Below are positions 8,111-8,224 of a stretch of DNA of 64,000 nucleotides, piece by piece. This DNA comes from a bacterium (GTDB taxonomy: Bacteria; SZUA-79; Acidulodesulfobacterales; Acidulodesulfobacteraceae), in NCBI GenBank assembly GCA_021818985.1, contig JAKASO010000002.1:43383-107382 (forward strand), written 5' to 3'. The translations under genes were made by a program, and so were the position numbers. The first letter of the stretch is position 1, and each line of letters begins with the position of its first letter. The notes under the pieces are model-generated. The model searched no databases and was not told where the DNA came from. It worked only from the letters and a program-made list of their open reading frames with translations.

Positions 8111-8224
8111 AACGCGATTATGCGTTAATGGCAAAGGCGCCATCAGTTTGGGACAGGGCTTTTATTTAATTATTTAAGCCCCGGTTGTTAATCAATTTAG
8201 TCCTGATCGAATGGCGCTTTTTTT
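8111..8224 (+). promoter_or_regulatory. Candidate structured nifH leader with two hexaloop hairpins and an alternative U-tract-terminated helix
   Basis: Hairpin A: 8111-8126 (AACGC/GCGTT, loop GATTAT). Hairpin B: 8128-8143 (ATGGC/GCCAT, loop AAAGGC). GCGCCAT at 8137-8143 can instead pair with ATGGCGC at 8211-8217, which is followed by T7 at 8218-8224. Confidence 0.3.

Follow-up and report, generated by a model that had tools for sequence, protein, structure and literature searches.

The leader of nifH, the first gene of a nitrogenase cluster in an uncultured lineage of the Acidulodesulfobacteraceae, raises the question of whether its transcription is controlled after initiation and, if so, by what. 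The gene lies in the window analysed here, a stretch of 64,000 nucleotides (nt) from contig JAKASO010000002.1 (positions 43,383 to 107,382, forward strand) of a genome of 1.62 Mb in 89 contigs and 36% G+C (assembly GCA_021818985.1). An earlier note, made from the sequence of the window, had proposed that this leader is an antitermination target of the ANTAR type. The leader has two mutually exclusive folds, which are both conserved in 19 relatives with covariation; the site is unique in the genome, it co-occurs with a gene encoding a response regulator with REC and ANTAR domains and it matches the box of the Geobacter regulator GnfR. These data support the proposal and suggest that the nifH leader is very probably an ANTAR-type, protein-dependent transcription attenuator, in other words an antitermination leader.

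Two mutually exclusive folds in the nifH leader

Direct reading of positions 7700-8500 places the element (8111-8221 plus a U-tract) on the 5' side of nifH, 79-192 nt before the ATG at 8303, where a distance of about 80-190 nt had been announced. It consists of the following parts.

8111..8126, + strand: P1 hairpin AACGC-GATTAT-GCGTT (RNA AACGC-GAUUAU-GCGUU), 5-bp stem and 6-nt loop, present in both folds
8128..8143, + strand: P2 hairpin ATGGC-AAAGGC-GCCAT (RNA AUGGC-AAAGGC-GCCAU), 5-bp stem and 6-nt loop, predicted anti-terminator
8133..8221, + strand: predicted intrinsic terminator, returned by the minimum free energy (MFE) fold and by the RNAalifold consensus, with a closing helix 8133-8143/8211-8221 around a three-way junction
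8148-8154/8200-8206, + strand: stem of the terminator junction in the MFE fold
8156-8181 and 8183-8197, + strand: hairpins of the terminator junction in the MFE fold
8156-8161/8176-8181, + strand: inner hairpin GGGCTT/AAGCCC, read directly
8218..8229, + strand: U-tract TTTTTTTATTTT, directly 3' of the terminator stem; the T-run is kept in 20/20 leaders
8290-8294 and 8303-8305, + strand: ribosome-binding site GGAGG and ATG of nifH, conserved in the alignment of nifH leaders

The earlier note had described the two neighbouring 5-bp hexaloop hairpins, the GGGCTT/AAGCCC hairpin located between two complementary segments, and the complementarity of GCGCCAT (8137-8143) to ATGGCGC (8211-8217), followed by TTTTTTTATTTT (8218-8229); all of these are found in the sequence as described. 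It had also noticed that A at loop position 1 and G at loop position 4 occur in the second loop and not in the first, and reading AAAGGC against GATTAT bears this out, P2 carrying both bases. A single nucleotide links P1 to P2 in the window.

The MFE fold of 8100-8235 retains P1, and an 11-bp helix between AAAGGCGCCAU (8133-8143) and AUGGCGCUUUU (8211-8221) closes the three-way junction. Its energy is -42.2 kcal/mol versus -26.0 +/- 3.6 for dinucleotide shuffles (z = -4.57), and 0/200 shuffles are as good. When P1 and P2 are imposed together, the energy is -28.6 kcal/mol and about 11 unpaired nt separate the residual structure from the U-tract; P2 taken alone has a dG of -5.5 kcal/mol. P2 competes with the terminator, as 8133-8143 pairs either inside P2 or with 8211-8221 ahead of the U-tract. 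The ribosome-binding site and start codon of nifH (8290-8305) are located about 74 nt downstream of the U-tract, outside the switch.

This architecture is rare. A composite pattern made of two GC-rich 5-bp/hexaloop hairpins separated by 0-12 nt, a 7-nt complement of the 3' side of P2 within 130 nt and a T-rich tail was seen once in 3.24 million scanned positions of the genome, its sole occurrence being the nifH leader. The element was missed by a simple terminator scan because the loop limit of that scan is 8 nt.

Conservation and covariation in related genomes

The nifH gene was located in 28 genomes of the same family, the upstream DNA (340 nt each) was aligned (alignment A1) and 27 nifH leaders were compared. 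A BLAST search of 40 relatives with the leader DNA gave short AT-rich chance matches only, and homology of the leaders emerged only after the alignment had been anchored on nifH. The same arrangement of P1, P2 and terminator is then found at the equivalent site in 19/19 relatives, all metagenome-assembled genomes, belonging to three genera (g3, g5 and g6). The motif is absent from the leaders of genus g2 (7 genomes). In the relatives, P1 reads AGCGC-AAnUGG-GCGCU and P2 reads nnGGC-(A/G)A(U/C)G(A/G)C-GCCnn, while the terminator is a long near-perfect hairpin whose 5' arm reuses ACGCCnn and which is followed by a U-run; its interior is variable (16-51 nt) and not alignable between genera. Across the 20 leaders, the P2 loop always has G at position 4 and has A (12 leaders) or G (8 leaders) at position 1. 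The P1 loop of the relatives (AAnUGG or a near variant) has A at position 1 in 18/19 cases, U at position 4 in all of them and usually G at positions 5 and 6.

The earlier note had called the long-range helix atypical for an intrinsic terminator. This holds for the window, where the terminator contains a branched insert that explains the remark, but in the relatives this terminator folds as a long hairpin of the ordinary kind. No second copy of the 67-nt insert, sought as a repeat or mobile element, was detected in the genome. The insert, the divergent P1 loop and a leucine substitution in the regulator (see below) are known from the window genome alone; a metagenome scan for closer kin of its genus gave a best match of 72% identity.

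Covariation was measured on an alignment of 73 columns from 20 genomes in which the variable interior of the terminator was masked. The fold with P1 and P2 has 96.5% of its cells paired and 4 pairs changed on both sides; the fold with P1 and the terminator has 93.3% paired and 9 pairs changed on both sides; for each of them, 0/500 shuffles are as good. Sliding the 3' partner columns by 1-3 positions makes pairing fall to 24-48%. Pairs 6-19 and 8-17 of P1 underwent double compensatory changes across the relatives, and the two outer pairs of P2 switch between AU and GC together across genera. Above all, columns 36 and 37 of the shared arm switch between AU-type and GC-type jointly with the 5' arm of P2 (columns 22 and 23) and with the 3' arm of the terminator (columns 60 and 61). 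Likewise, position 5 of the P2 loop covaries (A-U to G-C and back) with the first base after GGCG in the 3' arm of the terminator, in the window and in genome G021. Among the 20 genomes, no unpaired cell occurs at terminator pairs 36-61 and 37-60 and two occur at each of the corresponding P2 pairs, which fits a strong default terminator and a weaker P2 helix that would need a protein to hold it. P1 and the terminator are also recovered, independently, when RNAalifold is run without masking; 11/24 pairs are then compensated. An alignment of nifH leaders had been proposed in the earlier note as a check on conservation and covariation: the two-hairpin motif is kept in 19 relatives with compensatory changes in both folds, and its non-conservation is excluded.

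Uniqueness of the site and link with the ANTAR gene

A covariance model of P1 and P2 (R1) finds one strong match per genome (44-65 bits), which is always the nifH leader, the next best match reaching at most 23 bits. With a second model (R2), built without the window, the window site ranks first in its own 1.6-Mb genome (27.9 bits, E 6.5e-4). In a scan of the genome, the box resembling that of GnfR is intergenic only at nifH. A second model match, on the minus strand of genome contig C5 (481-529), lies inside an mnmE-like coding region and includes a P1-like hairpin only; it was rejected.

The genomes positive for ANTAR have one ANTAR gene each, which lies on the nifH strand, 9.0-9.9 kb downstream of that gene, wherever the contigs allow the distance to be read (14 genomes). 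Motif and gene are distributed as follows.

Motif present: 20 genomes, 18 with the ANTAR gene; the exceptions are G018 and G023, in which the nif contig stops short of the ANTAR position
Motif absent (genus g2): 7 genomes, 1 with the ANTAR gene; the exception is G022

The case of G022, considered as a counter-example with the gene and without the motif, was rejected: its ANTAR gene is carried by a 3.1-kb contig (C145; L012/L128) and encodes a protein identical to that of G005, a g6 genome, so that this contig was probably mis-binned. Model R1 found no match in the loci around distant ANTAR homologues (35-41% identity) from other lineages. The genomes of these homologues have no linked nifH, and the nif-embedded arrangement is therefore documented within this family.

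The REC-ANTAR protein and the search for a partner kinase

The only ANTAR gene of the genome encodes a protein of 199 amino acids with a Response_reg domain (80.6 bits) and an ANTAR domain (PF03861, about 63-65.5 bits). The receiver residues D17, D18, D61, T88 and K113 are intact and conserved. The best match among solved structures is EutV (6wsh/6ww6, E 2.4e-27), and the RNA contacts R142, K143, K147, K149, E160 and M172 of EutV are conserved in the alignment with this protein.

The genome encodes six HisKA kinases, none of which is located near the nif cluster. A soluble NtrB-like kinase (372 amino acids) encoded after glnK-amtB is found in every genus, including in genomes without ANTAR, and is non-discriminating. 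As a separate observation, the region that encodes it (genome contig C70, 305-3565) comprises a sigma54 box, glnK, amtB, two tandem 31-nt terminator-like repeats (AAATGGCAGGGGGGTATTATTTTATTTAGAG) and then the kinase gene, with no adjacent response regulator gene.

Comparison with known ANTAR systems

In Geobacter sulfurreducens, GnfR binds the CAGGCAAGGGCGCC RNA of the nifH leader only when GnfK has phosphorylated it, mutation of gnfK or gnfR leads to premature ends of nifH transcripts, and a conserved CAGGCAANGGCGCC box overlaps the 5' side of terminators in Geobacter (Ueki and Lovley 2010, PMC2995071). As in the GnfK/GnfR system, a sigma54 (RpoN) promoter, predicted here from consensus match and conservation, precedes an intrinsic terminator within the nifH leader. 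The two systems also share the conserved box over the 5' side of the terminator: ATGGCAAAGGCGCC in the window is identical to the GnfR box CAGGCAANGGCGCC at 12/14 positions, and the relatives have GGC(A/G)A(U/C)G(A/G)CGCC. Both regulators are REC-ANTAR proteins with an intact phospho-acceptor site, encoded behind their own sigma54-type box. Unlike in Geobacter, where nifEN, nifX, glnK and amtB are gated as well as nifH, there is a single target per genome (nifH). The nif cluster itself contains the regulator gene, flanked by nifX and nifI1/nifI2; no kinase comparable to GnfK, which is dedicated and devoid of a sensor domain, was identified among the kinases of the genome; and the P2 loop of the relatives is AAUGAC, not AANGGC. 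Moreover, the present lineage is uncultured, AT-rich and has a small genome, and the likeness to GnfR does not amount to a claim of orthology.

The dual-hexaloop target defined by Ramesh et al. 2012 has A1 and G4 in both loops, a P2 that overlaps the terminator and, in the eut leaders of Enterococcus faecalis, a linker of 5-12 nt; shortening the eutP linker to 3 nt impairs induction, and ANTAR sites were predicted before nitrogenase genes in Pelobacter carbinolicus (PMC3369931). The nifH leader has the architecture of this target and departs from its A1/G4 rule in P1. As in the eut leaders controlled by EutV/EutW (Ramesh et al. 2012, PMC3369931; Walshe et al. 2022, PMC8934654), two short hexaloop hairpins are found and the 3' half of P2 is common to the intrinsic terminator; like EutV, the regulator combines REC and ANTAR domains with a coiled-coil linker, and it conserves most of the EutV residues that contact RNA. 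The differences concern the linker (1 nt versus 5-12 nt), the P1 loop, which lacks G4 (and also A1 in the window), the equivalent of Tyr164, which is His or Leu, the controlled function, which is nitrogenase instead of ethanolamine use, and the sigma54-type promoter. NasR-nasF of Klebsiella oxytoca and AmiR-amiE of Pseudomonas aeruginosa similarly combine a hexaloop hairpin carrying A1/G4 with an overlapping factor-independent terminator in a nitrogen-metabolism leader (PMC3369931). They differ by their sensing, which relies on NIT or on a pseudo-receiver and AmiC without any phosphorylatable receiver, and by their targets, which are nitrate assimilation or amidase genes. P1 corresponds to the upstream ("recruitment") hairpin of ANTAR targets.

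Objections and alternative explanations

Several observations weigh against an ANTAR-type attenuator. EutV requires A1 and G4 in both loops, whereas G4 is missing from the P1 loop of the relatives too, and the P1 loop of the window (GAUUAU) has neither base. The linker is exactly 1 nt in 20/20 leaders; it appears constrained, and outside the eut range, which may not define the whole family. Tyr164 of EutV stacks on the flipped-out G4 of the loop (PMC8934654). At the equivalent position the window protein has Leu, nine relatives have His, a distant homologue has Tyr and Rv1626 has Phe; the window protein, with its Leu, and the window RNA, with the most divergent P1 loop, may have drifted together. 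The branched terminator of the window is of an unusual form. The search for a partner kinase, based on sigma54 context and on distribution across genomes, identified no cognate kinase. Finally, the shared distribution of motif and gene could go back to no more than a single gain or loss (g2 versus the rest), and it is therefore weaker evidence than the raw counts suggest.

The first three of these points would also fit an attenuator without ANTAR control, in which a small RNA, a different RNA-binding protein or a small molecule sensed by a riboswitch, for example, would be in charge and the likeness to ANTAR targets would be incidental; in addition, the three-way junction of the window terminator could superficially resemble an aptamer. 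This explanation appears improbable. The terminator interior is variable in length and unalignable between genera, and the terminator is a plain hairpin in the relatives, so that there is no conserved ligand pocket. The part that is conserved is exactly the ANTAR-type dual hexaloop with the GnfR-like box, and the motif was lost along with the ANTAR gene in genus g2. The leader has no Rfam match: a scan of 7400-8400 with permissive E-values gave two sub-threshold chance hits only, and no ANTAR-target family.

A strong terminator placed after a sigma54 box would yield a discrete short transcript, and the EutX RNA that sequesters EutV provides a precedent for a role of such a transcript (PMC8934654). 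The terminated leader, of about 230 nt, could in this case be a sigma54-dependent small RNA with a function of its own, for instance sequestration of the ANTAR protein, as for EutX/Rli55, or an action in trans, and the terminator would serve mainly as the 3' end of this RNA. Such a role is compatible with antitermination and might be added to it, yet it has little probability: the stretch between the promoter box and P1 is conserved neither in sequence nor in length (29-125 nt), the element is found directly before nifH and nowhere else, and no independent evidence was found for a trans target.

It is very improbable that the inverted repeats are operator palindromes in the DNA, bound by a repressor or a roadblock downstream of the promoter, rather than RNA structures. 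GCGC-N6-GCGC and GGC-N6-GCC are indeed palindromes at the DNA level, with invariant core bases, but the changes observed are compensatory instead of conserving half-sites. G-U pairs are frequent, on the + strand only (13/20 at terminator columns 40-57, 4/20 at P1 columns 5-20 and 4/20 at P2 columns 22-37); as they are A-C mismatches on the other strand, they argue for RNA structure over a DNA palindrome. An arm that covaries with two alternative partners would be meaningless for an operator, and a U-tract follows the stem. Lastly, although hairpins are common in AT-rich intergenic regions, it is just as implausible that this structure is due to chance, that it has no regulatory function or that it only tunes the level of nifH mRNA, as a 5' stabiliser or as a partial terminator acting constitutively, given the fold z-score, the rarity of the composite pattern, the conservation with covariation across three other genera and the maintenance of a mutually exclusive P2 that a constitutive terminator does not need.

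Gene context and sigma54-type boxes

The genes around the leader, assigned by Pfam and NCBIfam, and the sigma54-type boxes found by pattern scan are as follows.

6351-7499, - strand: nifV (homocitrate synthase), divergent from nifH
7514-7529, - strand: sigma54-type box TGGCATATAATATGCA, 30 nt upstream of nifV
7815..7830, + strand: distal sigma54-type -24/-12 box CCGGCATAGTTTTTGC, an extra copy with no counterpart in the aligned 340 nt of the relatives
7971..7986, + strand: proximal sigma54-type -24/-12 box TGGCATAGTTTATGCA, ending 124 nt before P1, with correct GG-N10-GC spacing
8303-9175, + strand: nifH (NifH Pfam match, 423 bits)
9237-10142, + strand: short nifB
10096-10995, + strand: class I S-adenosylmethionine-dependent methyltransferase, overlapping the end of the short nifB and preceding nifD
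+ strand: nifD, nifK, nifE, nifN, then nifX (16838-17242)
17234..17249, + strand: sigma54-type box TGGCATTAATTTTGCA, which overlaps with the stop codon of nifX; 62 nt separate it from the REC-ANTAR start codon
17312..17911, + strand: REC-ANTAR response regulator (199 amino acids; Pfam Response_reg and ANTAR)
17918-18277 and 18284-18694, + strand: nifI1 and nifI2, directly after the REC-ANTAR gene

A sigma54 box is found in 27/27 nifH leaders of the family and, in the 20 that bear the motif, it ends 29-125 nt before P1; the proximal box of the window is the probable nifH promoter. The relatives have only one box in the aligned 340 nt upstream of nifH. The box before the ANTAR gene has a core (TGGCA..AA..TTGC) that is invariant in 12 genomes, so that the regulator, nifI1 and nifI2 probably form a unit with its own nitrogen-controlled promoter inside the nif cluster. 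The earlier note had placed the ANTAR regulator in the same operon as nifH: its gene does belong to the nif cluster, but given this conserved box of its own, co-transcription with nifH is not the whole account. Since the distance from nifH to the ANTAR gene is conserved in the relatives (9.0-9.9 kb), the sequence data suggest that the methyltransferase gene is a fixed part of the cluster.

Two side observations concern the upstream DNA. Two copies of the 14-mer GGCATAGTTT(T/A)TGC precede nifH at a distance of 156 nt from each other (7815-7830 and 7971-7986), and a third copy lies on genome contig C5 (29297), 204 nt before a MoaA-like radical-SAM (S-adenosylmethionine) gene. In genera g3, g5 and g6, a conserved block of about 35 nt, TTTAATCAAATrTGAyTA...TAAGCAAATTAA, precedes the nifH sigma54 box by about 60-70 nt (columns 50-95 of alignment A1, for example L065, L067 and L070); it is a candidate site for an enhancer-binding protein and is not recognisable in the window.

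Proposed model for nifH control

For an ANTAR-type attenuator, we infer promoter activity, the point of termination, protein binding and its dependence on phosphorylation, and the following model can be drawn. The sigma54 promoter (box 7971-7986) would start transcription of a leader of about 300 nt. By default, P1 and the strong intrinsic terminator (8133-8221 and the U-tract) would form and transcription would stop near 8225, before nifH. Once phosphorylated on Asp61, the REC-ANTAR protein (17312-17911) would dimerize and bind the hexaloop hairpins. This binding would stabilize P2 (8128-8143), whose loop and 3' arm constitute the 5' arm of the terminator closing helix. With P2 held, the residual terminator would end about 11 nt short of the U-tract, termination would not take place and transcription would read through into nifH, nifB, the methyltransferase gene and nifDKENX. 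A conserved sigma54 box of its own precedes the regulator gene, so that a single nitrogen signal would act twice, first inducing the regulator and then, with the regulator as intermediary, allowing expression of the structural genes, in the manner of a feed-forward AND gate. Transcription running on from nifH would contribute positive feedback.

A more comprehensive interpretation can be put forward tentatively and, taken with all its parts, is rather unlikely. The leader and regulator would form a self-contained, single-target module of the nif cluster whose interface does not follow the EutV rules (P1 never with G4, 1-nt linker, His) and which would have drifted further in the lineage of the window (loss of A1 in P1, Leu, a Geobacter-like AAAGGC loop, branched terminator). 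P2 alone would be recognized, P1 being a structural or kinetic helper, and the regulator, co-transcribed with nifI1 and nifI2 from its own sigma54 promoter, would act as a feed-forward, positive-feedback commitment switch for nitrogenase synthesis.

Significance

The mechanism is already known from Geobacter and is left unchanged by the present findings; the window is a well-supported further example of it. The ANTAR control of nitrogenase transcription, established experimentally for GnfR, is thereby extended to an uncultured, AT-rich, small-genome lineage represented by metagenome bins. The covariation of one RNA arm with two partners in 20 genomes makes the comparative case for a two-state attenuator dependent on a protein unusually clean. 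The departures from the EutV rules, namely the 1-nt linker, a P1 without G4 and the replacement of the stacking Tyr by His or Leu, could help to define the true requirements of ANTAR domains. For annotation, promoter elements alone are not enough to deduce nif expression in these bacteria, since a terminator stands between promoter and nifH.

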